A stretch of DNA of 64,000 nucleotides from Minisyncoccia bacterium (GCA_049997875.1 JBEKRC010000002.1:2755-66754), one strand, 5' to 3'. Numbered from the stretch's first letter, positions 24,713-58,728 are shown. Notes: generated from the letters alone by a model not told the origin. Made by a program: numbers and translations.

Positions 24713-24727
24713 ACATTTGTAGTTAAA

Positions 24728-28158: not shown

Positions 28159-28166
28159 ATTTTTTA

Positions 28167-31233: not shown

Positions 31234-31280
31234 AGCCCTATTTATAGGCGTACTATGCTAACAAATCAAGTGCCTGACGA

Positions 31281-32907: not shown

Positions 32908-33456
32908 ATGATTCATAAAAATTTAATCAAAACAGGGATTGTTCTCGCGGGGCTAACCGTTTTCTCGATAGTTGGCTTTGGTATCGCTTTCGGTTACGGC
33001 GGAGGCGGAATGACCGTAACTACTGGCGGTGGCGGGGGACCGGCTTACGTGCCGCCCGTTACTCCTACGGTTACCACTCCTGCGACTGGCGGCGGACAGG
33101 TTCTCGGCGCGGCGGCGTTTAACTTCACCATGACGCTTTCGCTCGGCTCGCGGAATGGCGACGTGACCGCATTGCAAACCCTGCTTACGGAACAAGGTTT
33201 CTACACCGGTCCCATCACCGGCTACTTCGGACCCTTGACGCAAGCGGCGGTCAAAGCGTTCCAGCAGAAGTATGGCATGTCTGCTACCGGCCTCGTCGGA
33301 TCGCTCACGAGGGCGCAGCTCAACGGCCTGAACGGCGGGCGAGTGCTCGGAGCAAGCACGACCGGGGCGGCAGCGCTACAAGCGCAAATAGCGGCACTGC
33401 AGGCGCAATTGGTCATTCTCTTGCAACAACTCGCGGCGATGCTCCAGGGCAGGTAA
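32908..33456 (+). CDS. peptidoglycan-binding domain (PG_binding_1) protein, membrane-anchored
   Basis: N-terminal TM helix and Gly-rich linker. GDVTALQTLLTEQGFYTGPITGYFGPLTQAAVKAFQQKYG is the PG_binding_1 signature. Coiled-coil tail. Confidence 0.7.
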   Translation: MIHKNLIKTGIVLAGLTVFSIVGFGIAFGYGGGGMTVTTGGGGGPAYVPPVTPTVTTPATGGGQVLGAAAFNFTMTLSLGSRNGDVTALQTLLTEQGFYTGPITGYFGPLTQAAVKAFQQKYGMSATGLVGSLTRAQLNGLNGGRVLGASTTGAAALQAQIAALQAQLVILLQQLAAMLQGR

Positions 33457-33497
33457 CGCACTAAGTCCGTACGTTTTTCTTTGAGGCTGCGTTGCGC

Positions 33498-33503
33498 TAT
33501 AAT
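33498..33503 (+). promoter_or_regulatory. TATAAT -10 element immediately upstream of ATG 33510; a leaderless transcript is possible
   Basis: Perfect TATAAT at 33498-33503, 7 nt before ATG 33510. The -35 is weak. Confidence 0.25.
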
Positions 33504-33509
33504 CACGGT

Positions 33510-34877
33510 ATGGATGCCATGCAGGGCATTTTGAATGCGGTGAGCGAGGTGTTTTGGTATGCGTGGTGGCTATGGGTTCCCCTCTTGTTGTTCCCGCTCT
33601 TTGAGTCCACGTGGCTTTTCTGGCGGCAGCAGGTTTTCAAGCACGAACTGGAATTCGTGCATATGGAGATCCGCATTCCGCGCGAGGTCACGAAGAGCCC
33701 GAGGGCGATGGAGCAGGTGCTCATGACCGTTCACAACCTCCGCAATGCGCCGGCAGACCCGGAGGAAAAATGGTGGGACGGCGAGGTCACGCGCTGGTAC
33801 GCGCTGGAGATAGTAAGCTTCGGCGGAGAGATCCACCTGTACGTACGCGCGTGGAGAAAGCAGAAGGAGATCATCCAGGCGGCATTCTTTGCCAATTATC
33901 CCGACGTGGAGATCGTGGAAACGGATGATTATATTGACCGGCTGCCTGCGAGCGTGGGGGAAATGTATAAAAGCGGCTACGACCTTTGGGGGTCCGAATT
34001 CATCCTTGAGCGCGAACCCGCCTACCCTATTAGGAGCTATATGGATTTTGAATCGCCGGACGAGGAAAAGCAGTTTGATCCCATGTCCACCTTCCTTGAG
34101 GTTCTCGGCAAGGTGAAGCGCGAAGAGATGTTGTGCATTCAGTATCTCATCAGGCCGGCGAGCATGAAATGGAGAGATAAGTATCAGCCTTTGGTTGAGG
34201 CATTACGCACGAGGCACCAGAAGATTGGGGGGGCGGGAGGAGCGAAGCCCACCATCGGAATGGAATTTCCGCACATCCTTCCGACGTTCCCCGTGAAACA
34301 GAGCGGAGGAGACGAGGATGCGCTGCGCGTCATTGGGAGGGCGATCATGACGCGGACGCCGGGCGAAACCGACGTCTTGAAGGCCGTGGAAGAGAACCTT
34401 TCCCTCCCGCCGTTTGAGACCCTCATCCGATTCGTCTATCTCTCGCCAAAGGAACTGTATTTTGACACGCTCCCGCGGCGCGGATTGCGCGGCGCATTCA
34501 ACCAATATGCCGCCGCCGACCTTAACTGGTTTGAGCGGAACGAGCGAATCAGCACGAGGGTGAAGATATGGGATTTTCCATTCTTTTTTCCGCATGCGCG
34601 CCTTGATTGCAGAAAGAGCCGCGTGCTTGCGGACTATCGCGCGCGGGAAATCCCGCCGGAGACCTCAGTGGGAAAAATTATCCGCTCCAAATTTTTGCAT
34701 TGGGAGCATTCCCGCATGTTTCTCTTGAGCGTGCGATCGCTTGCGACGCTCTTCCATCCGCCGACCTACCAGGTGCTCACGGCGCCGCACATCAAGCGGG
34801 TGGAGAGCAGGAAGACAGGCGCGCCGGCGGGCCTTGCGATCTACGGCGGGGAAGAGGAAATGGAAAAGTTCAAATAA
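33510..34877 (+). CDS. hypothetical membrane protein (first gene of the ATPase / Cys-rich array cluster)
   Basis: ATG at 33510 (MDAMQGIL...). An N-terminal hydrophobic segment is followed by a large soluble domain. No family recognised. A TTG at 33492 gives an alternative start. Confidence 0.45.
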   Translation: MDAMQGILNAVSEVFWYAWWLWVPLLLFPLFESTWLFWRQQVFKHELEFVHMEIRIPREVTKSPRAMEQVLMTVHNLRNAPADPEEKWWDGEVTRWYALEIVSFGGEIHLYVRAWRKQKEIIQAAFFANYPDVEIVETDDYIDRLPASVGEMYKSGYDLWGSEFILEREPAYPIRSYMDFESPDEEKQFDPMSTFLEVLGKVKREEMLCIQYLIRPASMKWRDKYQPLVEALRTRHQKIGGAGGAKPTIGMEFPHILPTFPVKQSGGDEDALRVIGRAIMTRTPGETDVLKAVEENLSLPPFETLIRFVYLSPKELYFDTLPRRGLRGAFNQYAAADLNWFERNERISTRVKIWDFPFFFPHARLDCRKSRVLADYRAREIPPETSVGKIIRSKFLHWEHSRMFLLSVRSLATLFHPPTYQVLTAPHIKRVESRKTGAPAGLAIYGGEEEMEKFK

Positions 34878-35452
34878 TGGAGATTATTACAATTATCAAG
34901 TGGATCTGCATTGTGATTGTGATACTGCTCGCCGTGGGCTTTGTCTTTGCGTTTTTTGTGGGCTGGTTCTACCACCCGTTCATGGCCGTGCTCGCCGTTG
35001 TCAAGTGGATTTGCATCGTGATTACGATACTGCTCGCCGGGGGCTTCGTCTTCGCGTTGTATAAGGGTTGGTCTTACCATCCACGTTATGAATTGGAAAA
35101 GCGGAAAGCGAAGAAAATATTCACCCTGCGTGATGCGGTGACGAAGGAACACTGGGAATCCATCGTGAGGAAATTCTCGCTGGGAACGCCGGAGGCCGCG
35201 CGGGCGGCCGTCATTGAGGCGGACGCGCTCGCGGATACGGTGCTCAAAAGCATGGAGATTCCGGGAACGCATCTTGCCGACCGGTTGTCCAACCTGGAGC
35301 CGGAGGAGGTTGCGTCGCTTGACCGGGTATGGCGGGCGCACCGCACGCGGAACGATCTCGTGCACACGCCGGGATTTGCACTGACCGCCAAGGAGGCGCA
35401 AAAGACGCTTGAGGACTACGAGGCTTTTCTCAAAGATCTGGGAGTGCTATAA
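34877..35452 (+). CDS. hypothetical membrane protein with internally duplicated TM segment
   Basis: ATG overlaps the upstream TAA (TAATG). Two near-identical TM repeats (IIKWICIVIVILLAVGFVFAFFVGWFYHP / VVKWICIVITILLAGGFVFALYKGWSYHP), then a soluble helical domain. Confidence 0.45.
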   Translation: MEIITIIKWICIVIVILLAVGFVFAFFVGWFYHPFMAVLAVVKWICIVITILLAGGFVFALYKGWSYHPRYELEKRKAKKIFTLRDAVTKEHWESIVRKFSLGTPEAARAAVIEADALADTVLKSMEIPGTHLADRLSNLEPEEVASLDRVWRAHRTRNDLVHTPGFALTAKEAQKTLEDYEAFLKDLGVL

Positions 35453-35459
35453 CGAAGCC

Positions 35460-36941
35460 ATGCCAAGAGCGGGGAAAATACAGATCATCAGGTACGCGCC
35501 GCCGCCGCCGGAGCTGCCGATTTACGGGCAGGTGGATCCGGCGGAGGTTTCTTTCTTTGGCCGCACGAACTACGTAGCGCAGCTTGAGGAGAAAAAGTTC
35601 GTTTTCGGCATCAAGCGGTACGACCGGCGCCGCCATCTTTACATTGTGGGAAAAAGCGGCGTGGGGAAATCAAAGTTGCTTGAACTTCTCATCCGCCAGG
35701 ACATTGCTTACGGCCACGGAATATGCCTCATGGATCCGCACGGCGACGTGATTGATGCGGTCATTGATTTTGTCCCGGAGAATCGGATTAACGACGTGGT
35801 GATCATAGATCCTACCGATTTAAGTTATCCGGCTTCGTTCAACCCCCTGCAGAACGTGGACCCCAGCTTCAAGCACCAGCTTGCGCAAGGGTTGATTGAG
35901 GTGATGGAGAAACAATTCGGCGCGAACTGGACGCCGCGCCTTGAGCACGTTTTCCGTTTCAGCGTGCTCGCGCTCCTTGATTACCCGCACGCCACGATGC
36001 GGGGGATGATCTCCATGCTCACGGACCGCAACTACCGCCAGAAGGTGGTGGAATATATTGAAGACGACATGGTGAAGCGCTTCTGGGCCATTGAGTTCGC
36101 CGACTGGTCGGAAAAATTTGATACGGACGCGATCATCCCGCTCGTGAACAAGCTCGGACAGTTCCTCTCCGACCCTTTGCTTCGGAACATTTTCGGCCAG
36201 AAGGAGAATAAGATAAATCTGGAGGAGTTGATGGAACAGAAAAAATTGATTTTCATCAATCTTTCCAAGGGCCGCCTCGGCGAGGAGAACTCAAGCTTTT
36301 TGGGCGCGATGTTCATCACGAAGATCAAACAGGCCGGCATGGCGCGCGCTTCCATACCCGAAAAGGACCGGCATGATTTTTATCTCTACGTGGATGAGTT
36401 TCACAATTTCGTTACGGAAACTTTTGAGAATATTCTTACCGAAGCGCGGAAGTACGCATTATGCCTTACGATCGCGCATCAGTACATGGGCCAGCTTATC
36501 CAGCGCGTGCAGGCGGCGGTCTTGGGCAACGTCGGAAGCCTCATCATCTTCCGCGTCGGCGGCGAGGATGCGGTTCACTTGAAGCCCGAGATGGCGCCGA
36601 TCTTTGACGTGAAAGACATGATCAACCTCGGCACGCAGGAGTTTTTCATCAAGATGACGATTGACGGCGAGAGCTACGATCCCTTTTCGGCGGAAACGCT
36701 CAAAGTGCTCCCTGCGCCCCACCGCTCGTTCCGGAAAGAAATCGTGGAACAGTCCCGGAAGAAGTACACCATCCCCGCCGACGCCGCAAAGAAGCTTATT
36801 CAGGAAGAGGAGGCCACGATCCTTCGGAGCGCACAGGAAAAAGCCATTATTGAAGGCAAGGCGAGAGGCGGCGGGGCGGCGGGCGCGGCGGGCGCGGCGA
36901 AAGAAGAGGCAGTAGACAAGACCCCCGAACCACTGATATAA
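35460..36941 (+). CDS. FtsK/HerA-superfamily P-loop ATPase (VirD4/TraD/VirB4-like 'T4SS DNA-binding domain' type)
   Basis: ATG at 35460. Walker A (GKSGVGKS), then LMDPHGD, then Walker B-like (DFYLYVDEFHNF). Paralogous to 48311..50311. No N-terminal TM segment. Confidence 0.7.
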   Translation: MPRAGKIQIIRYAPPPPELPIYGQVDPAEVSFFGRTNYVAQLEEKKFVFGIKRYDRRRHLYIVGKSGVGKSKLLELLIRQDIAYGHGICLMDPHGDVIDAVIDFVPENRINDVVIIDPTDLSYPASFNPLQNVDPSFKHQLAQGLIEVMEKQFGANWTPRLEHVFRFSVLALLDYPHATMRGMISMLTDRNYRQKVVEYIEDDMVKRFWAIEFADWSEKFDTDAIIPLVNKLGQFLSDPLLRNIFGQKENKINLEELMEQKKLIFINLSKGRLGEENSSFLGAMFITKIKQAGMARASIPEKDRHDFYLYVDEFHNFVTETFENILTEARKYALCLTIAHQYMGQLIQRVQAAVLGNVGSLIIFRVGGEDAVHLKPEMAPIFDVKDMINLGTQEFFIKMTIDGESYDPFSAETLKVLPAPHRSFRKEIVEQSRKKYTIPADAAKKLIQEEEATILRSAQEKAIIEGKARGGGAAGAAGAAKEEAVDKTPEPLI

Positions 36942-36948
36942 TATAGGC

Positions 36949-37128
36949 ATGTTCGTGCACCCGGTCCTTTTTGTCGTCGGCATTCTATTCGTTATTTATC
37001 TCATCGCGGCCGATGTTCATATGCATCGGCGCATCAAACATTTGGAAAAGACCGTAAGGAAGCTTGAGGGCATGAACAGCGTGGAACGTCCAAAGCATCG
37101 CTGGGAGGGAAAGGAAGATCTTTCATAG
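36949..37128 (+). CDS. hypothetical small membrane protein (59 aa)
   Basis: ATG at 36949. MFVHPVLFVVGILFVIYLIAADVH is a single TM helix, followed by a basic tail. Falls below the ORF-track cutoff. Confidence 0.25.
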   Translation: MFVHPVLFVVGILFVIYLIAADVHMHRRIKHLEKTVRKLEGMNSVERPKHRWEGKEDLS

Positions 37129-37146
37129 CGCGCCCAACGCCGCCCA

Positions 37147-38922
37147 ATGCCCGCCCTGACCCGCACGTGTCAAAACTGCAAATCCTCGTTCGCGATTGAG
37201 TCCGAGGATTTTGATTTCTATAAAAGAATAGCCGTCCCGCCGCCGACCTTCTGCCCGACGTGTCAGATACAGCGGCGGTTCTGCTTCAGGAATGAGCGGT
37301 CGTTCTATAAACGCAAAGAATCGTTGCGAGGGGAAGAGATTATTTCTTCCGTCTCTGCCGAAAAACCTTATAAGGTCTATGCGCAAAAAGATTGGTGGAG
37401 CGATGCGTGGGATCCGATGGTATATGGGCGGGAATATGATTTCAAAAAGCCGTTCTCGGCGCAATTCCGGGAATTGATGCGGGAGGTCCCGTGGCCAGCG
37501 CTCACGAACTGGAACGCAACGAACAGCGAGTATTGCAATTACACCACAGATAACAAAAACTGTTATCTTCTGATCGGTTCCGATTTCAACGAGGACTGCT
37601 CGTACGGTTACATGAACTTTCACTCCAAAGACAGCCTCGACCAACACTGGGTGGAGAAAGTTGAACTATCGTACGAGTGCATTGACGTGAATAATTGCTT
37701 TAAAGTGAGCTTTTGCCAAAACATACGTGACTGTACGGAATCGGTGTTTCTGTTTGATTGTACGAATTGTCATCATTGCGTGGGATGCGTGGGGCTTCGC
37801 AACAAGTCACATCACATTTTTAATGAGCCGTACGCGAGAGAGGAATTTGAAAAGAAATTCGCAGAACTTCGCCTTTCCACCCGTTCGGGCCTGGAAAAAA
37901 CCGGGAAAATATTCGCCGGCCTTAGATCAAAGTTCCCCCACAAATTTGCGGACATTTATAAATCGGTGAATTGCACGGGCGACAAAATACAGAACTCAAA
38001 GAACTGCCATGCGTGTTTTGACCTCCTGAACGAAGTGGAGGATTCAAAGAACGTGATCATTTCGGCGGTTTGCAAGGATGTGCATTGTGCGGATCATGTC
38101 GGGTGGGGAGGGGAACTTGTCTACGATTCAATCGTAGTGTTCTCCGGCGTAAAAAATGTCAGATTCTCGGCATTCATAAGGTCCTCTCAGGATATAACCT
38201 ATTCCATTTCATGTTCTTCCTCTTCCGATCTGTTCGGCTGTGTCGGGCTGAAGAATAAGCAGTATTGCATCCTGAACAAGCAATATTCCAAGGAGGCCTA
38301 TGGAACGCTCGTATCAAAGATCTTGAAGCATATGGATGAAATGCCCTATGTGGATTCCAACGGAGCGGTATATCGATTTGGGGAATTTTTTCCACCCGAA
38401 CTGTCACCCTTTGCTTACAACGAATCCATCGCCCAAGAATATTTTCCGCTCACAAAAAGCGAAGTGATGCGGCACAAGCTCGCCTGGCGGGAGGACGATG
38501 AAAAGCAGCACCATGTTTCCAAGATGGTGGAGGAACTTCCCGATGGCATCGCGGAAGTAACAGACGCGATTTTGGACGATATTATTGAGTGTGCGCACAA
38601 AGGGCAATGTGCGGACCAATGCACATCGGCTTTCCGGATCATTCCATCCGAGCTGCAGTTCCATAAGAGGTTGAATTTGCCTCTGTCCCGTCTTTGCCCG
38701 AATTGCCGATATTATGAACGGTTGCGGATGAGGAACCCAATGAAACTTTGGCATCGTGCCTGTGCATGCACGGGGACAGTTTCCTCAAATGGAGCATACG
38801 AGAACACGGTGTCGCATCAGCACGGGTCAAACAAGTGCCCCAATGAATTTGAAACCTCCTATGCCCCCGAGCGCTCCGAGATCGTTTACTGCGAGCAGTG
38901 CTATCAGGCGGAGGTCGCTTGA
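37147..38922 (+). CDS. Cys-rich tandem-paralog protein 1 (double zinc-ribbon-flanked CxxC-repeat protein)
   Basis: 591 aa with no signal peptide. N-terminal CQNC...FYKRIAVPPPTFCPTCQIQRR, central CxxCxGC repeats (FDCTNCHHCVGCVGLRNK; SCSSSSDLFGCVGLKNKQYCILNKQYSKEAY), and C-terminal LPLSRLCPNCRYYERLRMRNP...CPNEFETSYAPERSEIVYCEQCYQAEV. Confidence 0.8.
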   Translation: MPALTRTCQNCKSSFAIESEDFDFYKRIAVPPPTFCPTCQIQRRFCFRNERSFYKRKESLRGEEIISSVSAEKPYKVYAQKDWWSDAWDPMVYGREYDFKKPFSAQFRELMREVPWPALTNWNATNSEYCNYTTDNKNCYLLIGSDFNEDCSYGYMNFHSKDSLDQHWVEKVELSYECIDVNNCFKVSFCQNIRDCTESVFLFDCTNCHHCVGCVGLRNKSHHIFNEPYAREEFEKKFAELRLSTRSGLEKTGKIFAGLRSKFPHKFADIYKSVNCTGDKIQNSKNCHACFDLLNEVEDSKNVIISAVCKDVHCADHVGWGGELVYDSIVVFSGVKNVRFSAFIRSSQDITYSISCSSSSDLFGCVGLKNKQYCILNKQYSKEAYGTLVSKILKHMDEMPYVDSNGAVYRFGEFFPPELSPFAYNESIAQEYFPLTKSEVMRHKLAWREDDEKQHHVSKMVEELPDGIAEVTDAILDDIIECAHKGQCADQCTSAFRIIPSELQFHKRLNLPLSRLCPNCRYYERLRMRNPMKLWHRACACTGTVSSNGAYENTVSHQHGSNKCPNEFETSYAPERSEIVYCEQCYQAEVA

Positions 38923-38960
38923 AGTAGGCGGGGCCACATTAAAAAATCATTAAAAACTAT

Positions 38961-38989
38961 TTGACGTAGGATGCGGCGTTGCTATAATT
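38961..38989 (+). promoter_or_regulatory. Near-consensus sigma70 promoter
   Basis: TTGACG (38961-38966), 17-nt spacer, TATAAT (38984-38989). Confidence 0.55.
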
Positions 38990-38995
38990 AAGGAA

Positions 38996-39052
38996 ATCTT
39001 TGGGATTACCCACCGATCCCCGCCCCTTCACGGGGCGGGGTGACGATTTTTT
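38996..39052 (+). ncRNA. Candidate small RNA (about 55 nt), antisense to the 3' end of the MazF-like toxin gene
   Basis: The consensus promoter is followed within about 25 nt by an intrinsic terminator. It has a 9-bp GC stem (CCCCGCCCC-ttcac-GGGGCGGGG, 39018-39040) and a T6 tract (39047-39052). No plausible CDS lies between them. Confidence 0.4.
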
Positions 39053-39449
39053 GAGGATCATAAAATATAAGAAAAGCATCAATTATCTTTTGAAAGTTGC
39101 CCATGCTCAGCATGCCGACTTTTTGCGTAAGGCGTTTTGCGTCAAAAATTCTGATCTGACTGAGGATTGCCATACGTTTCTTCTCGCCATGTTGTATAGG
39201 AACATACCAGCTGCCAGTTTTTTGTTGTGTGGTGAGCGGAATTCCAAGAAAGGAATTGGCACTGAATTTTTTGAATACGAGAACCGGGCGCGTAAACCGC
39301 TTTCCCTTGCCGTAGATTTCTACGCCGATGTTCATGCCAATGCTGCACCACCAGATTTCTCCCTCCTTGAAGAGTTTTTGTGATGACAGGGTTTGTAATA
39401 TCACCGTCCTATGCCACCAGCCGAGAAGTGCGAGAAAATATTGTAGCAT
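39006..39449 (-). CDS. MazF/PemK-family toxin-like protein (orphan, opposite strand within the array)
   Basis: GEIWWCSIGMNIGVEIYGKGKRFTRPVLVFKK...GIPLTTQQK...LSQIRIFDAKRL follows the MazF/PemK/Kid pattern (G-D/E-I-W; R-P-x-L-V; conserved T; C-terminal RL). No antitoxin-sized ORF is adjacent. Confidence 0.55.
   Translation of the reverse strand: MLQYFLALLGWWHRTVILQTLSSQKLFKEGEIWWCSIGMNIGVEIYGKGKRFTRPVLVFKKFSANSFLGIPLTTQQKTGSWYVPIQHGEKKRMAILSQIRIFDAKRLTQKVGMLSMGNFQKIIDAFLIFYDPQKIVTPPREGAGIGG
39018..39052 (+). terminator. Rho-independent terminator (+ strand)
   Basis: Perfect 9-bp G/C stem, 5-nt loop, and a TTTTTT tail after a 6-nt spacer. Confidence 0.65.
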
Positions 39450-39521
39450 CTCGCCACCTTACCACACCGCCCATTAAAACTTTGTTAAATTTCCGACCTA
39501 CGAGCGTGTTATACTGTCTAT

Positions 39522-41300
39522 GTGGTGAACGAGACCAGAATTTGTCAGAACTGCAAACAGCGGTTTGCGATTGAATCGGGGGACTCCGCGTTTTACGAGA
39601 AGATGCAGGTGCCGCCGCCGACGTTTTGCCCGGACTGCCGGTTGCAACGGCGGATGGCGTTCCGCAATGAACGCACGCTCTACAAGCGGAAGTGTGAAGC
39701 CCCCGGGCACTCGGAGGAGGTAATCTCTGTCTTTTCGGCGGACAATCCGCAGCGGGTGTACGACCAGGAGGCGTGGTGGAGCGATTCCTGGGATCCCATG
39801 GCCTACGGGCGGGAACCCGATTTTGTGAAGCCGCTCATTCCGCAGATCATGGATTTATGGAAAGAGGTGCCGGACATCGCCCTCATGAACAACAACTGCG
39901 TGAACAGCGAGTATTGCAGCATCACCGAGGAGAACAAGAACTGCTATCTCGTGATCGGAGGGGATTTCAACGAAAACTCCTCTTATTCCTCGTTTATTTT
40001 CCACTGCAAGGAGACGCTTGATTGCCACTGGGTTTCCAAGAGCGAATTTTGTTACGAGAGCCTTGACTGCATCTCCTGCTCGCGGCTTTTCTTCAGCCAA
40101 TTCTGCGAAGGATGCTACGAGAGTGCGTTCCTCTTCAATTGCAAAAACTGCCACGATTGCTTCGGATGCACCAATTTGAACAACAAATCATACTGCATCT
40201 GGAACGTTCAGTATTCAAAAGAAGATTACGAAACTAAGATAAAGGAATTTGATCTGGGGAGTTCCGCCGCCATTTTCCAATTCAGGGAAAGAGCGAAAAA
40301 GGAGCAGCTTTTATATCCTCGGCGATTTGCGCGCGTGCTCCGGTCGGTCAATGCTACCGGCGACAATATTGAAGGCGGAAAAAACTGCAAGCGATCGTTT
40401 GAAATTTTTGATGGAGCCGAAGATTGCGCCTATCTATGGCTCATCTATTCGAAGGTGCGGGATTGTTACGACACCGATCATTCCGGCTTGAGCTCCGAAT
40501 TGTGCTGCGATTCGTCAACCATATATCCGGGGAGCCGCATTCTTTTCTCACGTTTCATCCGTTCCTGCAAGGATACGTATTACAGCTATAACTGCCACAA
40601 CTGCTCGGATATTTTTGGCTGCGTCGGACTTCGGAATAAAAAATACTGCGTTCTCAATAAACAATATTCGGAGAAGGAATATAGAACGCTGGTGCCAAAA
40701 CTCGTCGCACACATGAACAGCGCGCCGTACATCGATACCAAGGGAAGAATCTATAAATACGGCGAATTTTTCCCCGTTGAACTTTCGCCCTTTGCCTATA
40801 ACGAAACGGTTTCCCAAGAGCTTTTCCCGTTGACCAAGGGAGAAGCTGCAGCGCGCGGATATCAATGGCGCGAGCCAGAGAAAAGAGACCGCGATATAGC
40901 CAATGCGGTTTCCGGCGTGCCAGATCATATTAAAGATACCGACGATTCTATTCTTTCAAAGATCATAAAATGTGCTCATGCTGATTCCCATTGCTCGCAT
41001 CAATGCACGAAAGCATTCCGGCCGATCGCATCAGAACTTCAATTTTACAAACATGTAAAAATCGCCTTCCCTCGGTTATGTCCCAACTGCCGCCACTATG
41101 AGCGGATCGTAAAGAGGAACCCATTGAAGCTTTGGCATAGGAAGTGCATGTGTGGGGGAACACAATCAAAAAACTATGCAAACGCAGCGCCGCATTTTCA
41201 CAAGAACAATCCGTGCGGAAACGAATTTGAGACGACCTATGCCCCCGACCGGCCGGAGATCGTCTACTGCGAGCAATGTTACCAGGCAGAGGTCGTATAA
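39522..41300 (+). CDS. Cys-rich tandem-paralog protein 2
   Basis: GTG start. 592 aa with the same three-part architecture (N-ribbon CQNC..CPDCRLQRR; central CxxC repeats; C-ribbon CPNCRHYER...YCEQCYQAEVV). Conserved WWSDSWDP and GEFFPVELSPFAYNET blocks. Confidence 0.8.
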   Translation: MVNETRICQNCKQRFAIESGDSAFYEKMQVPPPTFCPDCRLQRRMAFRNERTLYKRKCEAPGHSEEVISVFSADNPQRVYDQEAWWSDSWDPMAYGREPDFVKPLIPQIMDLWKEVPDIALMNNNCVNSEYCSITEENKNCYLVIGGDFNENSSYSSFIFHCKETLDCHWVSKSEFCYESLDCISCSRLFFSQFCEGCYESAFLFNCKNCHDCFGCTNLNNKSYCIWNVQYSKEDYETKIKEFDLGSSAAIFQFRERAKKEQLLYPRRFARVLRSVNATGDNIEGGKNCKRSFEIFDGAEDCAYLWLIYSKVRDCYDTDHSGLSSELCCDSSTIYPGSRILFSRFIRSCKDTYYSYNCHNCSDIFGCVGLRNKKYCVLNKQYSEKEYRTLVPKLVAHMNSAPYIDTKGRIYKYGEFFPVELSPFAYNETVSQELFPLTKGEAAARGYQWREPEKRDRDIANAVSGVPDHIKDTDDSILSKIIKCAHADSHCSHQCTKAFRPIASELQFYKHVKIAFPRLCPNCRHYERIVKRNPLKLWHRKCMCGGTQSKNYANAAPHFHKNNPCGNEFETTYAPDRPEIVYCEQCYQAEVV

Positions 41301-41307
41301 TTGAAGC

Positions 41308-42954: not shown

Positions 42955-42959
42955 AGGCA

Positions 42960-44666: not shown

Positions 44667-44740
44667 AATTTTTTAATGTTTCTTGTCGGTTTTAAGGGGC
44701 TATCCTTTCTATTGCTTGGTTGCCTGGCAAAAGGAGTAAA

Positions 44741-44752
44741 ATGGAGGGGTAA
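44741..44752 (+). other. Three-codon mini-ORF (ATG GAG GGG TAA) with its own AAGGAG SD, immediately upstream of paralog 5
   Basis: AAGGAG is 6 nt upstream of ATG 44741, the stop is at 44750-44752, then a GGAGGGG-like SD precedes ATG 44757. Confidence 0.2.
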
Positions 44753-44756
44753 GGGC

Positions 44757-46481
44757 ATGGTTGCCGAGGCCAAAACCTGTGGGGCGTGCAAGGGGGAGTT
44801 CGCGCTTGAACCGGAGGATCTTGCATTCTACGGGAAGTTCGGCGTGCAGGCGCCGAAGATGTGCCCGCGGTGCCGCGCGCAGCGGAGGATGGCGTTCCGA
44901 AACGAGCGGGTGTTCTACAAACGAAAATGTGATAAGTGCGGGCGCGAGGTGGTTTCCATGTACAGTCCGAACAAACCGTACATAGTGTATTGTTACGAAT
45001 GCTGGTTCGCAGACGATTGGGATGCATTGAGCTACGGGACGGAGTACGATCCCGCGCGGCCGTTCATGGAACAGTTCCGCGAACTTTGGGAAAAGGTGCC
45101 GAAGGTGGCGCTCGTCTACATGCGGAGCGTGCGTTCGGAATACGTGAACATCTCGGCGGACAACAAGGATTGCTATATGCTTGTGGAGTCATCCAACAAC
45201 GAGGGATGTGTCCATTGTTATTGGATCCAGCAGTGCCGCGATCTCGTGGATGTTTCGTTCTCGCACCAGACGGAGCTTTCGTATGAATGCGACGATTGCT
45301 TCAATTGTTACGGACTGCAATATTCAAAAGGATGCCACGATTGCCGCAATAGTTATTTCTTGTTTGATTGCGTGGGATGCTCGGACTGCATCGGTTGCGC
45401 GAACCTCCGCAGCAAGCAGTACCATATTTGGAACGAGCCGCATTCCAAAGAGGAATACGAAGAGTTCCTCGCGGAGATGAAACTTGATACGCACGCCGGG
45501 GTTGAAGCGACGCACAGAAAGTTTGAGGAATTCTTGAACGCCCAGCCGCACAAATTCGCGGAGATCCTGAACGCGCCGGGCTGCACGGGGAATTACATCA
45601 AGAATGCCAAGAACTGCCGGCAGGTCTTCCATTGCTACGACGCGGAGGATGCGAAATACGGCATCCATGTGTGGCGCGACGCAAAGGACTGCATGGATGT
45701 GGATACGGCGGGCCGCGGTGCTCGTCTGATCTACAACTCCATCAATTCGGGCATTGAGGTTTCAAACTATATCGCCTGTGCGCAGTGCTGGACGTGTTCG
45801 TTCATGCAATATTCTTATTCCTGTTTCAATTGCAATCACTGTTTCGGTTGCGCGGGACTCCGGAAAAAGGACCGCTGCGTTCTGAATCGCGAATACGATA
45901 AGGCGTCGTACGAGCGGCTGCGCAGCGCCATCGTCGCCGAAATGAAGTCAAAAGGGGAATACGGCGAATTCTTTCCGGTCGCGATCAATACGTTCGGCTA
46001 CAACGAGAGCGCAGCACAGGAACAGTTCCCGCTCACGAAGGCGGAAGCGCTCGCGCAGGGATACAAATGGGAGGACGCCCATCGCGGAACCTTTGGGAAG
46101 GGAACCATCACGTGGGACAAGGTTCCCGATCACTATGACGGCTTTGATCCCACGCGGCATGTCTTTACGTGTGCGAATTGCAAACGGAATTATCTCATAA
46201 TCCCAAACGAAGCAATGTTCTATAAGAAGCTTGCGATCCCCGTGCCGCGCCTGTGTCCCGATTGCCGCCACACGCGCCGCTTCGCCGCCCGCGGGCCGAA
46301 CCGCGTTTCACGACAGCACTGCGAATGCGCGGGCGCGTCATCGGCCAACAAACGGTACCGCAACACGCGAGCTCATGCCCACGCGGACGCTCCATGCCCC
46401 AACGAATTTTGGACGAGCTATGCTGCGAACGACGAGCGGATCGTCTACTGCGAAGAGTGCTATAACGCAGAGGTGGCGTAG
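44757..46481 (+). CDS. Cys-rich tandem-paralog protein 5
   Basis: ATG at 44757 after GGAGGGG. 574 aa. MVAEAKTCGACKGEF...CPRCRAQRR, and a C-terminus CPDCRHTRRF...CPNEFWTSYAANDERIVYCEECYNAEVA. Confidence 0.8.
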   Translation: MVAEAKTCGACKGEFALEPEDLAFYGKFGVQAPKMCPRCRAQRRMAFRNERVFYKRKCDKCGREVVSMYSPNKPYIVYCYECWFADDWDALSYGTEYDPARPFMEQFRELWEKVPKVALVYMRSVRSEYVNISADNKDCYMLVESSNNEGCVHCYWIQQCRDLVDVSFSHQTELSYECDDCFNCYGLQYSKGCHDCRNSYFLFDCVGCSDCIGCANLRSKQYHIWNEPHSKEEYEEFLAEMKLDTHAGVEATHRKFEEFLNAQPHKFAEILNAPGCTGNYIKNAKNCRQVFHCYDAEDAKYGIHVWRDAKDCMDVDTAGRGARLIYNSINSGIEVSNYIACAQCWTCSFMQYSYSCFNCNHCFGCAGLRKKDRCVLNREYDKASYERLRSAIVAEMKSKGEYGEFFPVAINTFGYNESAAQEQFPLTKAEALAQGYKWEDAHRGTFGKGTITWDKVPDHYDGFDPTRHVFTCANCKRNYLIIPNEAMFYKKLAIPVPRLCPDCRHTRRFAARGPNRVSRQHCECAGASSANKRYRNTRAHAHADAPCPNEFWTSYAANDERIVYCEECYNAEVA

Positions 46482-46488
46482 CGAAGAC

Positions 46489-48264
46489 ATGGGACCCGAA
46501 ACGAAAACCTGCCAAAATTGCAAACAGTCGTTCGTCATTGACCCGGAGGATTTTCGGTTCTACGAAAAGATCGGCGTGCCGCCGCCCACCTGGTGCCCCG
46601 AGTGCCGGATGATACGGCGGATGGTGTGGAGAAATGAGCGCTCGTGGCATCGGAGAAGATGTGATGCGACGGGAAAGAACATACTCTCCATGTTTGCGCC
46701 CGATATGCCGTACAAAGTTTACGAACAGACGTTCTGGAAAAGTGATGCGTGGGATCCGCTCTCCTACGGTCGCGACTATGATTTTTCGAAACCGTTCTTC
46801 ACGCAGTTTCAGGAATTGCTCGTTGCCGTTCCTCATCCCAATCTCATCCAGAAAAATGCGGTGAATAGTGAATATTCCAACTATACCGTCAATGTCAAAA
46901 ATTGTTATTTCTTCGGAGGGGCTGCCACCGCCGAAGACAGTGGATACGGCTTCCCGCCGAACGTTCGGATCCGGGAATGCTTTGATGTTCACACGATGGG
47001 GGATGCGGAATCCTGTTATGATTCCGTTGATATTGAACAGTCGCAGGGGTTACGATTTTCGCAAAGTTGCGTCGGGTGCAGCAATTCGTATTTTCTTTAT
47101 GATTGCCGGAATTGCACCGATTGTTTTGGTTGCGTCGGGTTGCGCAACAAACAGTTTTATATATTCAATGAGGCACATTCCCGGGAGGAATATGCCAAAA
47201 GGCTCACTTCATTTATGCCAGGGACTTTCTCTGGCATCGCAGCCGCCCGTGAAAAGTTCAATGAGCTGAAGCTCGGATTCCCGAGGAAATACGCCGCAAT
47301 CCTGAAATCGGAGCGGGTGACCGGCGACGACATTGTGAATGCGCGCGATTGTACCTACTGCTTTGACGCAAAGAGAGAGGTGCAAAATTGCAAGTATTCG
47401 TTCCGTGTCCTTGATAACACAAAAGATGGCTATGATGGTCTCACGGCATGGGACGGTACAGAACTATTCTATGAAGTGATGAGCGTCACGGGGCAGCGGG
47501 TTATTGGCTCGGCCTGTATCTGGGGAGGATTTGACGTGATTCATTCTTACAATTGCTTTGATTGCAATAATGTCGTGGGGTGCATCGGATTGCACAACAA
47601 GTCGTACTGTATTTTCAACAAACAATACGGCGAGGGAGAGTATAAGGAACTTTCGCCGCGGATTCTCGCTCAGATGGATGAAGTACCCTATGTTGATCAA
47701 CGAGGAAGATCATACGGGCACGGCGACTTCTTCCCGCCAGATCTTGTGCCGTTTGCCTACAATGAAACCTTGGCACAAGATTATTTTCCAAAGACGAAAG
47801 AGGAAGCAGTTGCGATGGGATTTCGGTGGCGCGAGACCGAAGATAAAAAATATCAGATTACCATGAAGGTTGAAAAACTTCCAGATGACATTCATGCAGT
47901 TTCAGATTCCATACTCAATGAGGTGATTGAGTGCGCGCACGAGGACAAGTGCAACGATCACTGCGCGAAAGCGTTTCGCATTGTGCCGCAAGAACTCCAA
48001 TTTCTTAGAAAGATGAACGTACCCTTGCCGCGATTGTGTCCATCGTGTCGACAGATGGAACGGCTCCGACTTAAAAATCCGCTTCGGCTGTGGCATCGAC
48101 GCTGTGAGTGCAATGGTTCTCAATCTGCGAATGGGAGATATAGAAATGTCGCCGCGCACTCCCACGGTAAAAGTTTGTGTCCGACGGAATTTGAAACACC
48201 GTATGCGCCTGACCGTTCAGAGATTGTCTACTGCGAGCGGTGCTACAACGCGGAAGTGGTGTAG
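46489..48264 (+). CDS. Cys-rich tandem-paralog protein 6
   Basis: ATG at 46489. 591 aa. MGPETKTCQNCKQSFVIDPEDFRFYEKIGVPPPTWCPECRMIRR, and a C-terminus LPRLCPSCRQMERLRLKNP...CPTEFETPYAPDRSEIVYCERCYNAEVV. Confidence 0.8.
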   Translation: MGPETKTCQNCKQSFVIDPEDFRFYEKIGVPPPTWCPECRMIRRMVWRNERSWHRRRCDATGKNILSMFAPDMPYKVYEQTFWKSDAWDPLSYGRDYDFSKPFFTQFQELLVAVPHPNLIQKNAVNSEYSNYTVNVKNCYFFGGAATAEDSGYGFPPNVRIRECFDVHTMGDAESCYDSVDIEQSQGLRFSQSCVGCSNSYFLYDCRNCTDCFGCVGLRNKQFYIFNEAHSREEYAKRLTSFMPGTFSGIAAAREKFNELKLGFPRKYAAILKSERVTGDDIVNARDCTYCFDAKREVQNCKYSFRVLDNTKDGYDGLTAWDGTELFYEVMSVTGQRVIGSACIWGGFDVIHSYNCFDCNNVVGCIGLHNKSYCIFNKQYGEGEYKELSPRILAQMDEVPYVDQRGRSYGHGDFFPPDLVPFAYNETLAQDYFPKTKEEAVAMGFRWRETEDKKYQITMKVEKLPDDIHAVSDSILNEVIECAHEDKCNDHCAKAFRIVPQELQFLRKMNVPLPRLCPSCRQMERLRLKNPLRLWHRRCECNGSQSANGRYRNVAAHSHGKSLCPTEFETPYAPDRSEIVYCERCYNAEVV

Positions 48265-48310
48265 TAACGCTGGCAGAATCGCCAAAATCGTGGTATCATA
48301 AGAGCAGAAT

Positions 48311-50311
48311 ATGGAGGAAGTTCCCGAAAAAAACGTCATTTATTTCGCACGAACCGATTTTCGCAATCAAGACCGGCTTTTTGGTATCAAGCGGAGCGAT
48401 CGGCGCCAGCACATGTATGTCATAGGAAAAACCGGCACCGGCAAAAGCGCGCTCCTCAACAACATGGCCGTGCAGGACATCGCGAACGGCGAGGGGCTTT
48501 GCGTGGTGGACCCGCACGGCGAGCTCGTGGAGGGACTCATGAAAAGGATTCCGGAGGAAAGGATGAAAGATGTCATCTATTTCAATCCGGCAGATACGGA
48601 TTTTCACATCGGCTTCAACGTATTGGAGCTGCCCGATCCGAAGTACAAGCACCTTGTGGCATCGGGGCTCATGGGAATTTTCACGAAGATCTGGGCAGGC
48701 GTCTGGTCGCCGCGCATGGAATACATTTTGAATAATTGCGTGCTCGCGCTCCTGGACACTCCGGGTTCCACGCTCCTCGGCATCCCTCGGCTTCTGACCG
48801 ACAAAGATTACCGGCAGAAGATTATCACGAACATAAAGGACCCTGTTGTGAAAGCCTTCTGGATCCATGAATTTGAAGGATGGCAGGACCGGTTCAGGAA
48901 CGAGGCCATCGCGCCGATCCAAAACAAGGTAGGCCAATTTCTTTCCACCTCTCTCGTGCGCAACATCGTCGGCCAATCAAAGAGCACTGTGGACATTTTT
49001 GACGTGATGAACGAGGGAAAAATCTTCCTCGTAAACGTTTCCAAGGGCCGCATCGGGGAAGACAACTCTGCGCTCCTGGGCGCGATGCTTATCACGAAAA
49101 TCCAGCTTTCGGCAATGGAGCGCGTGCGCGTCCCCGAGGACGAACGCGTGGACTTTTATCTTTATGTGGACGAGTTCCAGAACTTCGCCACGGATTCTTT
49201 CGCGGGCATCCTTTCCGAAGCGCGGAAGTACCGCCTGGATCTTATTCTTGCGCACCAATATATCGGCCAGCTCGTCACCGATACGTCCACAAGGGTGCGC
49301 GACGCGATCTTTGGCAACGTGGGAACGATGGTCACGTTCCGGGTGGGTGCTACCGATGCGGAGTTCCTGGAGAACGAGTTCACGCCCGAGTTCGTGATAG
49401 AAGACATCGTGAATCTTCCGAATTATTCCATCTATCTGAAGCTTATGGTGGATGGCGTGACCGCGCGCCCATTTTCCGCAATCACGCTCCCGCCGCTTCA
49501 GGTGAAAACCTCCGCGATGGTGGAATCCGAAATCATTAGGATGTCACAGAAGCGCTACGCCCGGCCGCGCGAGATCGTAGAGGAAGAAATCAATCGCTGG
49601 AGCGGCGTGATGGGACCGCCTGCGGCTACCAGTGCGGAAAAGAAAGGCGGAGATGCGACGAGGTACGAAGCCATATGTTCTTCATGCGGCAAGATGACGA
49701 CGCTGCCGTTTGAGCCGACGCCGGGCCGGCCGGTGTATTGCCGCGATTGTCTGAAAAAAATTGAGGCCGGCGAGCTCCAGCCGGTACGGGTGCCGCGCGC
49801 GTCAGTCGCGCGCGCGAGGCCGCAGAAAAAATACGCAGATGATTTGAGTTATCTCGGCATTGAGTTCCCGGAGCAGGGAGCGCCGGCCGAGCCGCAGTCC
49901 ACGGCAAGAAGGGCGCCCACGCCGGTGCGCCCCATGGGTTCCATGGACGGAAGGGAAAGGACAGGGGTAGGGGTAGGAGCGCCAATTTCCGGTTCCGAGC
50001 CAAAAGCGGTTATGCCAACCTCCGTACCGGTCACTGCGCCAACCGCGCCGCCATCCGCCGAGCCATCGGAGCGGACGCTTTCGCTGTCCGAATTGAAATC
50101 GGCGGATCGGAAACCGAAGCTGAAGAAATTGCAACAACATGAGGTGATCAACATTTCCGAACTTCGGGAGGCAATCAAGGCATCATTGAGCGCGGATATC
50201 GGTGCGGGTCCCGCGCAGGCCGCCGAGGTGGAAAAAAGCGACAGCGCCGACGCCGATAAGCAGGATGGCGAAGAAGACAACAGCGACGCGGAGCATGTGC
50301 GCCGCATTTGA
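48311..50311 (+). CDS. FtsK/HerA-superfamily P-loop ATPase, paralog 2, with C-terminal zinc ribbon and an acidic low-complexity tail
   Basis: GKTGTGKS Walker A, VVDPHGE, DFYLYVDEFQNF. The C-terminus carries CSSCGKMTTLPFEPTPGRPVYCRDCL, then a Pro/Ala/Glu-rich tail. Confidence 0.7.
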   Translation: MEEVPEKNVIYFARTDFRNQDRLFGIKRSDRRQHMYVIGKTGTGKSALLNNMAVQDIANGEGLCVVDPHGELVEGLMKRIPEERMKDVIYFNPADTDFHIGFNVLELPDPKYKHLVASGLMGIFTKIWAGVWSPRMEYILNNCVLALLDTPGSTLLGIPRLLTDKDYRQKIITNIKDPVVKAFWIHEFEGWQDRFRNEAIAPIQNKVGQFLSTSLVRNIVGQSKSTVDIFDVMNEGKIFLVNVSKGRIGEDNSALLGAMLITKIQLSAMERVRVPEDERVDFYLYVDEFQNFATDSFAGILSEARKYRLDLILAHQYIGQLVTDTSTRVRDAIFGNVGTMVTFRVGATDAEFLENEFTPEFVIEDIVNLPNYSIYLKLMVDGVTARPFSAITLPPLQVKTSAMVESEIIRMSQKRYARPREIVEEEINRWSGVMGPPAATSAEKKGGDATRYEAICSSCGKMTTLPFEPTPGRPVYCRDCLKKIEAGELQPVRVPRASVARARPQKKYADDLSYLGIEFPEQGAPAEPQSTARRAPTPVRPMGSMDGRERTGVGVGAPISGSEPKAVMPTSVPVTAPTAPPSAEPSERTLSLSELKSADRKPKLKKLQQHEVINISELREAIKASLSADIGAGPAQAAEVEKSDSADADKQDGEEDNSDAEHVRRI

Positions 50312-55785: not shown

Positions 55786-55795
55786 ATATTTATTC

Positions 55796-56881: not shown

Positions 56882-56895
56882 GGGGCAAGTGGATG

Positions 56896-58376: not shown

Positions 58377-58488
58377 TAACGTAAGTATACAAAATTGGCT
58401 TGATATAAGTTAGCGATATGCAGTATGATGCAGCCAGCAGCCTCCGATGCTTGTTGTGATAAAAGAGGCGCTGGAAGGAAGGTGAACC

Positions 58489-58728
58489 ATGAGTGATTTA
58501 CGAGCTCTACGCTATCCTGTCGCGGCAGAGGATCGGCTACCGGAAGGGAAACCTTCCGCGCATGACCAGAAAGTCTTCCGGAAAGTTGGCCGTCTGATCG
58601 CTGCCGGGTGGAAACTTCTCGGTAGTTTTTACACCGGCTACGGCCACTATGCTATCCGCCTGTCTATGGCGAAAGGCGGCAGGGCAGAGGAGTTTTTCAC
58701 CGATCTGCCATTTGGGAGGGAGCTATGA
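58489..58728 (+). CDS. hypothetical small protein
   Basis: 79 aa with no family recognised. A 29-codon hydrophobic mini-ORF (MKLFKVVGLVIVLVFILALAFLGGSGIKG) follows with an ATGA overlap at 58725-58728. Confidence 0.25.
   Translation: MSDLRALRYPVAAEDRLPEGKPSAHDQKVFRKVGRLIAAGWKLLGSFYTGYGHYAIRLSMAKGGRAEEFFTDLPFGREL

Follow-up and report, generated by a model that had tools for sequence, protein, structure and literature searches.

A conserved patescibacterial gene module of two coupling-protein-like ATPases, a DUF8128 membrane protein and a family of cysteine-rich proteins

We analysed a stretch of 64,000 nucleotides (GCA_049997875.1, JBEKRC010000002.1:2755-66754; hereafter the window) from the chromosome of a Minisyncoccia/Paceibacteria bacterium (Patescibacteria), and in it a gene cluster at 32908-50311 that encodes two ATPases related to coupling proteins of type IV secretion systems (T4SS) and six cysteine-rich (Cys-rich) paralogs. 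The analysis established a conserved partnership of a split, membrane-anchored motor of the VirB4/type IV coupling protein (T4CP) type, a second motor that bears a zinc finger, and a zinc/Cys-rich protein family without a signal peptide. It also established that this module is chromosomal, core-like and specific to Patescibacteria. In the Paceibacteria, a large group of very small bacteria that probably live as symbionts, it is found lineage-wide. As to its function, the leading explanation, which we hold with less than even confidence, is a T4SS-derived translocation motor system acting on the zinc proteins as its clients.

The cluster consists of eleven co-directional genes on the + strand, which encode a peptidoglycan (PG)-binding protein (PG_binding_1), a DUF8128 protein, a small protein with two transmembrane (TM) helices, ATPase 1, the six Cys-rich paralogs and ATPase 2. 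Open reading frame (ORF) listing and translation of the window found each gene where an original prediction, made from the sequence, had placed it:

32908-33456, + strand, PG_binding_1 protein, 182 amino acids (aa); Pfam PF01471, E 4e-18; TM segment at residues 10-28
33510-34877 (ORF from 33492, 461 aa), + strand, DUF8128 protein, 455 aa from Met7; N-terminal hydrophobic helix
34877-35452, + strand, small membrane protein, 191 aa; two TM helices
35460-36941 (ORF from 35409), + strand, ATPase 1, 493 aa; T4SS coupling-protein-like P-loop ATPase
37147-38922, + strand, Cys-rich paralog 1, 591 aa, 34 Cys
39522-41300, + strand, Cys-rich paralog 2, 592 aa, 40 Cys; copy used for the structure model
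41308-42954, + strand, Cys-rich paralog 3, 548 aa; 71%-identical orthologue in locus L053
42960-44666, + strand, Cys-rich paralog 4, 568 aa; intact N-terminal CxxC-x17-CxxC (C58..C61, C79..C82)
44757-46481 (ORF from 44676), + strand, Cys-rich paralog 5, 574 aa; intact N-terminal CxxC-x17-CxxC
46489-48264 (ORF from 46231), + strand, Cys-rich paralog 6, 591 aa; weak zf_Tbcl match at residues 5-43
48311-50311, + strand, ATPase 2, 666 aa; T4SS coupling-protein-like, with C-terminal zinc finger and tail
49661-49759, + strand, zinc finger of ATPase 2, residues 451-483, CSSC...x17...CRDC; PF23477, TIGR04272

For ATPase 1, the ATG at 35460 is most likely the true start.

Aligned over 432 aa, ATPases 1 and 2 show 44% identity (E 3e-137); both possess a Walker A motif (GKSGVGKS and GKTGTGKS), the motif DPHG(D/E) and an hhhhDE Walker B (LYVDEF), in agreement with the paralogous pair that had been predicted. 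They had been called HerA/VirD4-like; the superfamily stands, while the generic HerA label does not, as the matches are to T4SS coupling proteins. In Pfam, TrwB_AAD_bind (PF10412) scored 35.7 bits (5.9e-9) for ATPase 1 and 45.0 bits (8.9e-12) for ATPase 2 at a cut-off of 20.5, T4SS-DNA_transf scored 29.2 and 25.6 bits for the two proteins at a cut-off of 20.1, and TraG-D_C (PF12696) scored 26.3 bits for ATPase 2 and 21.5 bits for ATPase 1, the latter just under the 22-bit cut-off. NCBIfam matches were limited to TraD and VirD4-like models, plus weaker ones to VirB4, CedD and CedB, and all scores lay far under the curated cut-offs (at best 55 bits against 250 for VirD4-like CD1115, 44 bits against 366 for SXT_TraD). 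Only TrwB (1e-5) and DotL (0.12) were matched by sequence in the PDB. Neither ATPase contains a hydrophobic or TM segment. Judged by sequence, both are relatives of coupling proteins that sit within no curated family.

Two old types of these ATPases can be distinguished across related genomes. ATPase-1-type proteins are about 485-510 aa long, have a median identity of 78% to the window copy (range 70-86%) and share the conserved N-terminal motif 'RVQIIKYAPPPPELPVFGKV', which reads KIQIIRYAPPPPELPIYG in the window copy. ATPase-2-type proteins, with a median identity of 61% to the window copy, typically carry a zinc finger of the CxxC-x17-CxxC pattern (14 of 18 proteins, versus 0 of 23 of the ATPase 1 type, and none in the ATPase 1 of the window); two of the four finger-less proteins are of a fused DUF8128-ATPase type. 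The finger is followed by a tail of 120-340 aa, often ending in '(K/R)E(V/I)PEDVL(R/K)K(I/V)LE'; in the window this tail is 182 aa long and of low complexity, with an acidic end. The finger of the window ATPase 2 scored 57.6 bits with TIGR04272 (cut-off 36) and 56.1 bits with PF23477 (cut-off 27, E 2.9e-15), and its cysteine pattern marks it as the same module type as modules B/B' of the Cys-rich proteins described below. Homologues of the ATPases, 23-29% identical, are also encoded by large Bacillus phages, namely phage G (gp156, JN638751.1) and SPO1-like phages (CP-51, JL, Shanette, SP8 and Goe2 among them).

The 455-aa protein encoded upstream of ATPase 1 is a member of Pfam DUF8128 (PF26449) according to a precomputed match on an identical protein (P0121), and PF26449 was assigned to 119 of 120 homologues among the matches listed. 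In loci L001 and L005, a 790-aa protein joins DUF8128, as its N-terminal part, to a T4CP-like ATPase, and in L001 a small gene precedes the fused gene. A single PHROG profile of 824 positions with no assigned function, phrog_5156, takes in DUF8128 (E 1e-5) as well as the ATPases (E 1e-56). The fused motor thus occurs in phages of monoderm hosts, where no Cys-rich family accompanies it. When DUF8128 was searched with Foldseek, the first 13 matches were all TrwK/VirB4 chains (E 5e-6 to 1.4e-3), and the next match had an E of 0.02. Because DUF8128 has no P-loop and structures comprising only the C-terminal domain of VirB4 were not matched, the modelled fold most plausibly corresponds to the VirB4 N-terminal domain. 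The DUF8128 profile found no sequence match in the PDB, hence the similarity to VirB4 is not one of sequence. Compared directly by BLASTP, DUF8128 and the N-terminal half of the L001 fusion showed only a weak collinear similarity (E 0.025); the link between the two is drawn from the assignment in Pfam, from the PHROG profile and from the structure. Gene fission would also fit a likeness shared by the C-terminal sequence of DUF8128 ('HIKRVESRKTGAPAGLAIYG'), the N-terminal one of ATPase 1 ('KIQIIRYAPPPPELPIYG') and the fused protein's linker ('VKWLKSKEAPPPADLP'). DUF8128, the TM protein and ATPase 1 are together a split VirB4-like architecture, that is, a membrane-anchored N-terminal domain plus a P-loop motor, with a motor domain closest to the coupling proteins TrwB/TraD/VirD4.

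The small TM protein of the window has an almost exactly duplicated TM segment (IIKWICIVIVILLAVGFVFAFFVGWFYHP and VVKWICIVITILLAGGFVFALYKGWSYHP, 34877-35060), and its homologues elsewhere have one TM helix. In the alignment, its cytoplasmic helical domain shows the conserved motif 'AIIEAD...GEHxADRL...W.AHRxRNxLVHxPGF'. The RNxLVH part, present in 5 of 6 homologues, fits the Rx4-6H signature of HEPN domains, and Pfam matches to HEPN families were weak and confined to single members (Hypoth_Ymh, 0.051; HEPN_Swt1, 0.15); we therefore describe the domain as HEPN-like tentatively. The protein is placed as a VirB3-like partner would be; it matched no VirB3 family (DUF4133 only, at E 0.16). DUF8128 and this protein had been predicted as two uncharacterised membrane proteins; their membrane nature stands, and they can now be described as a VirB4-like DUF8128 protein and a TM protein with an Rx4H motif.

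The six Cys-rich paralogs align end to end with 64 invariant columns and 31-52% identity (33-52% to copy 1, 31-51% to copy 2), just as a tandem array of paralogs had been anticipated. Their Cys content is 5.4-7.3%, and a TM segment was found in none of the six. Searches of Pfam, NCBIfam, PADLOC and PHROGs placed them in no family, returning only sub-threshold zinc-finger matches and a weak match to phrog_15341 (unknown function); that they belong to no characterised family, as first claimed, was thus upheld by Pfam, NCBIfam and further profile searches. A homologue search returned at least 5,759 significant proteins, and among the matches listed a Pfam domain (zf_Tbcl) occurred only once, while all named homologues were from Patescibacteria, mostly Paceibacteria (Liptonbacteria, Staskawiczbacteria, Nomurabacteria). 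An exhaustive profile search yielded 5,129 clusters at 50% identity, 2,209 of them at E <= 1e-30, with lengths almost all between 500 and 615 aa. A tblastn search of 50,697 phage records with a Cys-rich protein found nothing, and a scan of IMG/VR with the family gave one marginal match, at a contig end; a phage origin was rejected, the family being essentially absent from phage records and viral contigs. No description of DUF8128, or of patescibacterial families of Cys-rich, zinc or beta-helix proteins, came up in a literature search.

An AlphaFold2 model of paralog 2 reached a predicted local distance difference test score (pLDDT) of 80.7 and a predicted template modelling score (pTM) of 0.81, and was confident at both ends and over residues 340-480 and weak (55-70) over residues 125-340. 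Its layout comprises module A (7-56), module B (55-85), solenoid half 1 (about 136-244), helices, solenoid half 2 (about 285-395), an alpha/beta region, module A' (484-540) and module B' (539-587). Profile-profile comparison of sub-alignments supported homology of A with A' (probability 99%, E 3e-18), of B with B' (probability 86%) and of solenoid half 1 with half 2 (probability 99.8%, E 1e-27). Overall, the Cys-rich proteins consist of zinc modules on either side of a Cys-rich beta-solenoid, modules and solenoid alike being duplicated. Module A resembles the treble-clef family zf_Tbcl (PF13451) at a sub-threshold level. Paralogs 4 and 5 keep the CxxC-x17-CxxC pattern of B/B' intact in their N-terminal part, the other four show it decayed, and paralog 4 scored 16.3 bits with PF23477, under the cut-off of 27. 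In the solenoid of paralog 2, CxxC recurs at 12-residue steps (C183, C195, C207, then C213). Modules A and A' are basic (+6 and +10), solenoid half 1 is acidic, and the whole protein has an isoelectric point (pI) of 6-7.

Only 5-9 residues precede the first CxxC in 201 of 287 family members, and the longer N-termini of the remaining members show no consistent hydrophobic extension and consist of unconserved ORF extensions; the family therefore lacks a signal peptide. A lipoprotein signal on paralog 5 was rejected, since the lipobox-like 'FLLLGC' is added by the start at 44676 and this extension was unseen in orthologues. One subfamily (L043, L055, L060, L026, L156), of which the window has no member, carries ahead of its first zinc knuckle a conserved N-terminal helix of 24-32 residues, 'M(S/P)KTPQFDKALDEILKxLxPHxRTC'. 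The paralogs are evidently old, because 173 of 175 Cys genes from other genomes find their best match in another genome and identity among the paralogs of one locus is low (median 40%, maximum 53%). Every paralog of the window likewise has closer relatives elsewhere than next door, as with paralog 3 and its orthologue in L053.

The genomic linkage was assessed from two sides, with 78 loci from GTDB species representatives anchored on Cys genes (35 of them with full 10-kb flanks) and 80 metagenome contigs anchored on ATPase 1. Co-occurrence of the ATPases and the array in related genomes, on which the original prediction had staked itself beforehand, was conserved in both directions. At least two Cys genes were present in 46 of the 78 Cys-anchored loci, with up to 9 per locus when ORFs of at least 300 aa were counted, and 11 Cys-family ORFs are listed for the 21 kb of L051. 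A T4CP-like ATPase was found in 29 of these 78 loci and in 17 of the 35 with full flanks, and 42 of 43 ATPases shared the strand of the Cys gene closest to them, at a median gap of 106 bp. From the other side, a Cys gene was present in 58 of the 80 loci, and among those of at least 14 kb it was missing only from L118 and L131, the latter of which holds an ATPase-2-type gene. A Cys gene followed within 1.5 kb 3' of ATPase 1 in 32 of 50 loci, and in 39 of 53 informative loci the gene directly 5' of ATPase 1 was that of the TM protein, in most cases with DUF8128 before it.

Gene order varies among the loci (ATP1-Cys(n)-ATP2, ATP2-Cys-Cys-ATP1 and TM-Cys-ATP1 were seen) while adjacency is kept, which suggests selection on co-expression. 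Assuming about two t4cp genes per genome, a figure from a published survey (PMC12102498), a 20-kb view of a genome of ~1 Mb would be expected to contain one by chance in roughly 5% of cases, and 49% was observed. In L082 (3557-4693) and L083 (1940-3076), a 378-aa protein without a family match is encoded directly 5' of a four-gene Cys array that has no ATPases nearby, and this protein may be another recurring partner.

Spacing within the cluster is tight for the most part, as predicted: the DUF8128 stop and the start of the small TM gene overlap by 1 nt (TAATG, 34875-34879), ATPase 1 starts 7 nt past the preceding stop, and Cys genes 2-6 are separated by 5-9 nt, except that the gap before Cys gene 5 is 90 nt with the start at 44757 and 5-9 nt with the first ATG at 44676. 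The description does not extend to two wider gaps, of 205 nt before Cys gene 1 and of 600 nt before Cys gene 2, each of which is associated with a promoter-like site. The sites below are matches to a sigma-70-like consensus, and such sites were no more numerous over the region than in shuffled sequence; the first reaches across the 3' terminus of the ATPase 1 gene (36941), about 205 nt 5' of Cys gene 1.

36913-36942, + strand, candidate promoter, TAGACA-18-TATAAT, 11/12, extended TG; consensus match alone
38961-38988, + strand, candidate promoter, TTGACG-16-TATAAT, 11/12, extended TG; consensus match alone, inside the 600-nt gap before Cys gene 2
39006-39449, - strand, PemK/MazF-family toxin gene; Pfam PF02452, 4.8e-11, 43.3 bits versus a cut-off of 23.1

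Given the two wide gaps, each with an 11/12 site, the cluster may comprise two or three transcription units. The toxin gene had been predicted as an insertion, and a PemK/MazF gene is indeed present, on the minus strand and with no antitoxin-sized ORF adjoining it; it is an insertion outside the module. A 41%-identical MazF gene lies directly 5' of a Cys gene in Nomurabacteria contig L007 (L007:3-380).

The PG-binding gene, counted in the original prediction as part of the locus, was rejected as a module member, being absent 5' of DUF8128 in 11 related loci. Its product has an N-terminal TM/signal-like helix, a Gly-rich linker, the PG-binding domain and a C-terminal coiled-coil-like tail. In eight loci (L040, L052, L053, L056, L058, L063, L078, L080), the position 5' of DUF8128 is taken by secD/secF-like genes, a gene for a sigma-like protein of 342-356 aa, or both, as judged from the sequences by eye. 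The PG-binding gene and a glycosyltransferase island at this position in the window thus point to a local rearrangement.

The product of the DUF8128 gene is identical to a protein deposited as 'Minisyncoccia bacterium'. On the 5' side of the cluster, the window encodes an aminoacyl-tRNA synthetase, a MurA-like enzyme, MreB, holB, an RseP-type protease and a MacB/HlyD pump, followed by an island of low guanine-cytosine (GC) content at 24000-31300 (GC 0.29-0.34, versus about 0.54 elsewhere) directly 5' of the cluster. The island holds a Polysacc_synt flippase-like gene, two PMT_2 glycosyltransferase genes and a gene for a Laminin_G_3 lectin-fold protein, and may be a horizontally acquired surface-glycan locus. 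The cluster itself has a GC content of 0.49-0.56, matching the rest of the window. The MreB ORF (3138-4760) matches Pfam over residues 209-533 and has about 200 extra N-terminal residues from the first GTG, either a long extension or an ORF-calling artefact. On the 3' side lie an ABC exporter and pyrimidine-synthesis genes, the latter at 53615-62130 on the - strand (pyrB (OTCace), a dihydroorotase-like amidohydrolase gene, pyrD and carB). Patescibacteria are usually described as lacking de novo nucleotide synthesis. Scans for tRNA and Rfam families found none in the window, and no second copy of any cluster gene was found elsewhere in it.

Among known systems, the T4CPs (TrwB, TraD, VirD4, DotL) share with the ATPases a P-loop motor, Walker A/B, an all-alpha domain and the TraG-D_C region, and many have a long C-terminal tail as ATPase 2 does. 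They differ in possessing an N-terminal two-helix TM domain, in their curated cut-offs (250-650 bits, against 55 bits reached here) and in their relaxase and mating-pair-formation neighbours, none of which was found among the cluster and 20 flanking genes scanned. Moreover, the DUF8128 membrane partner has a VirB4-like rather than a T4CP-like fold, and ATPase 2 adds a zinc finger. VirB4 (TrwK of R388) resembles DUF8128 in the modelled N-terminal domain; it is, however, one polypeptide, whereas here separate genes encode the two parts with the TM-protein gene between them. TIGR00929 scored 23 bits against a cut-off of 643, for the fused homologue only, T4CP models scored better, and no cluster protein matched CagE_TrbE_VirB. 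The ATPases therefore fall outside both T4CP and VirB4 and look like a separate branch, with a VirB4-type N-terminal domain and a T4CP-type motor.

A 2025 survey reported 5,713 VirD4-like genes in Patescibacteria, of which only 148 lay near virB4 and almost none had relaxases, and suggested exaptation of the orphan t4cp genes for another function (PMC12102498). The ATPases described here very probably belong among these orphan patescibacterial t4cp genes. In its account of the patescibacterial T4SS (MPF-FATA-like), the passages retrieved mention neither DUF8128, nor two ATPase types, nor an association with Cys-rich proteins (PMC12102498).

The archaeal Ced/Ted DNA import systems (CedA/CedB/CedD) likewise combine a VirB4/HerA-type ATPase with small membrane proteins and no other T4SS parts. 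NCBIfam matches of our ATPases to CedD (6e-8) and CedB (1e-3) were weak and covered the P-loop region only, at about 30 bits versus a cut-off of 600, and the Ced/Ted systems have no Cys-rich partner family. In the Dot/Icm system, the C-terminal tail of the T4CP recruits adaptor subunits (DotL with DotM, DotN, IcmS/W and LvgA), and DotN binds zinc. The comparison would be one of functional analogy only; DotL was the third PDB match of the ATPases, and no homology was detected between DotN or IcmSW and the Cys-rich proteins. With respect to the fingers, that of ATPase 2 is a member of TIGR04272/PF23477, and modules A/A' and B/B' of the Cys-rich proteins resemble zf_Tbcl (PF13451) and TIGR04272/PF23477 below the cut-offs. 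Neither the CxxC-x17-CxxC nor the zf_Tbcl family has an assigned function, and zinc binding by the domain with the CxxC-x17-CxxC pattern has been demonstrated experimentally for small proteins of Methanosarcina (PMC12704099). The Cys-rich model also resembles beta-solenoids (ice-binding/antifreeze proteins, left-handed beta-helix acyltransferases, bactofilin, curli) at the level of fold only (3-11% identity, pLDDT 55-70); unlike the Cys-rich proteins, these named proteins are extracellular or enzymatic and have no zinc modules. A weak fold match to ESX/type VII components was seen, with no WXG100, EccB, EccC or EccD homologues here.

Based on these comparisons, we propose how such a translocation system might operate. 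The zinc proteins would be clients of both motors. ATPase 2 would serve as the receptor, binding them through its acidic tail or through the shared zinc-finger module, in the way coupling proteins bind substrates or adaptors by their C-terminal tails, and the basic A/A' modules could complement the acidic end of that tail. ATPase 2 would then pass the zinc proteins to a membrane-anchored hexamer of DUF8128, the TM protein and ATPase 1, in which anchoring would be supplied by DUF8128 and the TM protein, the ATPases having no TM segment of their own. This hexamer would spend ATP to shift the zinc proteins to or across the membrane, either autonomously or by feeding a patescibacterial T4SS encoded elsewhere. 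The old, specialised paralogs would represent distinct cargoes or cargo adaptors. In favour of this proposal are the family assignment of the ATPases, the two-way linkage, the varied order with kept adjacency, the shared zinc module and the exaptation that the 2025 survey suggested for VirD4-like genes of Patescibacteria.

Several observations weigh against protein translocation. What ties these proteins to one another is genomic context and sequence. The Cys-rich proteins look cytoplasmic, with multiple zinc-ribbon-type modules and no signal peptide, and to describe them as cargo-like, as in the original prediction, would be supposition; their extreme C-terminus is a folded zinc knuckle and not a disordered secretion signal, and the paralogs are old and conserved (173 of 175), unlike typical effectors. 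VirB6/VirB8 channel components are absent from the window, and the earlier statement that canonical T4SS structural genes and a relaxase are missing held for the genes scanned there. No ATPase occurs within 10 kb in 18 of the 35 fully visible Cys-anchored loci, and Cys copies are found in the housekeeping operons gyrB-Cys-ybaB-nusG-L11 and alaS-...-four Cys-infA-rpsM-rpsK-rpsD-rpoA. A t4cp homologue of Southlakia was also reported not to be essential for epibiotic growth (PMC12102498).

A machine for nucleic acids is nearly as likely as protein translocation, and like it a possibility that we rate below even chances. Here the motors would move DNA or RNA (in uptake, export or segregation), the Cys-rich proteins would be cytoplasmic adaptors that bind the nucleic acid and hand it over or take it up, comparable to the accessory proteins of relaxosomes, and the TM protein would be a HEPN-type RNase. 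The closest relatives of the ATPases (TrwB/TraD/VirD4, CedD/CedB, FtsK/HerA) are DNA translocases, and each Cys protein has four zinc-ribbon/treble-clef modules, two of them strongly basic, and no signal peptide; however, the proteins as a whole have a pI of about 6-7 with an acidic solenoid half 1, and nucleic-acid binding by either zinc-finger family would be a supposition. ATPase 2 bears the same type of finger. The conserved Rx4H motif of the TM protein would agree with an RNase, set against the weakness of the HEPN assignment (E 0.05-0.15, single members). The phage homologues of the ATPases and phrog_5156, with no Cys-rich protein in the phage records, indicate that the motor can work without Cys-rich proteins. 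Bacteria of the candidate phyla radiation (CPR) are thought to depend on imported nucleic acids, yet this genome encodes pyrimidine-synthesis genes. It is also hard to see why DNA adaptors should come as six to eleven large paralogs per locus whose divergence is ancient.

A third explanation, that there is no coupling at all, appears unlikely. The Cys-rich proteins would then be independent cytoplasmic housekeeping zinc proteins with structural, regulatory or metal/redox roles, and the adjacency would be synteny inherited in compact, co-directional genomes. The 18 ATPase-free loci agree with this, as do the single or tandem Cys copies beside gyrB/ybaB/nusG/L11, alaS, infA-rps-rpoA and pgk and the two promoter-like sites that part the ATPase 1 unit from the Cys arrays; DUF8128, too, is syntenic with secDF and the sigma-like gene for no obvious functional reason. 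Mere synteny is difficult to reconcile with an adjacency that has outlasted many rearrangements of order and copy number, with the co-directionality and short median gap of 42 of 43 pairs, with a frequency of 49% where some 5% would be a rough chance expectation, and with the zinc module common to ATPase 2 and the Cys proteins.

The original prediction had named translocation, competence or defence. Translocation remains the best reading, whereas an anti-phage defence or conflict system, in which a HerA/FtsK-type ATPase would work with effectors together with MazF and the HEPN-like domain, is very improbable and was rejected. PADLOC matches were weak and concerned the ATPases only (mad8, 39-44 bits, 1e-10 to 1e-12; HerA, about 20-25 bits), with nothing beyond noise for the Cys proteins, DUF8128 or the TM protein, and the HEPN-like motif and the MazF genes, inside the locus and beside the Cys gene in L007, are the other points in its favour. 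The MazF gene, however, is encoded on the other strand and is not conserved among the loci; across genomes ATPase 1 keeps 70-86% identity (around 78% to the window copy) and a conserved position among housekeeping genes, and the data suggest that practically every Paceibacteria genome has the module at a fixed locus; and the paralogs represent old orthologous lineages with no recent diversification, from a family missing from viral contigs. Least probable of all, and likewise rejected, is that the locus is left over from, or was cargo of, a conjugative or integrative mobile element with a coupling protein. Conjugative coupling proteins as the best family matches (TraD, VirD4-like CD1115) and the low-GC island 3-9 kb 5' might point to such an element. 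The genes scanned (cluster plus 20 flanking genes), however, included no relaxase, no integrase, none of VirB4/VirB6/VirB8 and no tRNA, the cluster GC (0.49-0.56) is native, about 78% identity is kept in many species in a chromosomal housekeeping context, and the scores lie far under the equivalog cut-offs.

A large part of bacterial diversity falls within the Patescibacteria (CPR), and for the majority of the genes specific to their lineages no function is known. The locus gives the orphan ATPases a concrete, conserved context of DUF8128, a small TM protein, a finger-bearing ATPase and a Cys-rich family, and that family, unannotated and comprising more than 5,000 clusters at 50% identity, fills more than 1% of a roughly 1-Mb genome. 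Returning to the translocation that we favour, it is conceivable, though doubtful at present, that the locus represents a third branch of VirB4/VirD4 ATPases with its own clients, zinc-studded Cys-rich beta-solenoid rods in 1 to 11 old paralogs, and that it moves these rods or bound nucleic acid across the membrane, possibly to the host cell, which would explain the orphan patescibacterial t4cp genes. If translocation is the true function, the locus would encode a secretion-type apparatus that is new, might serve the dealings of these episymbionts with their hosts, and would add a missing branch to the evolution of T4SS ATPases. Were the zinc proteins shown to be its clients, it might turn out to be a translocation system of a new kind.

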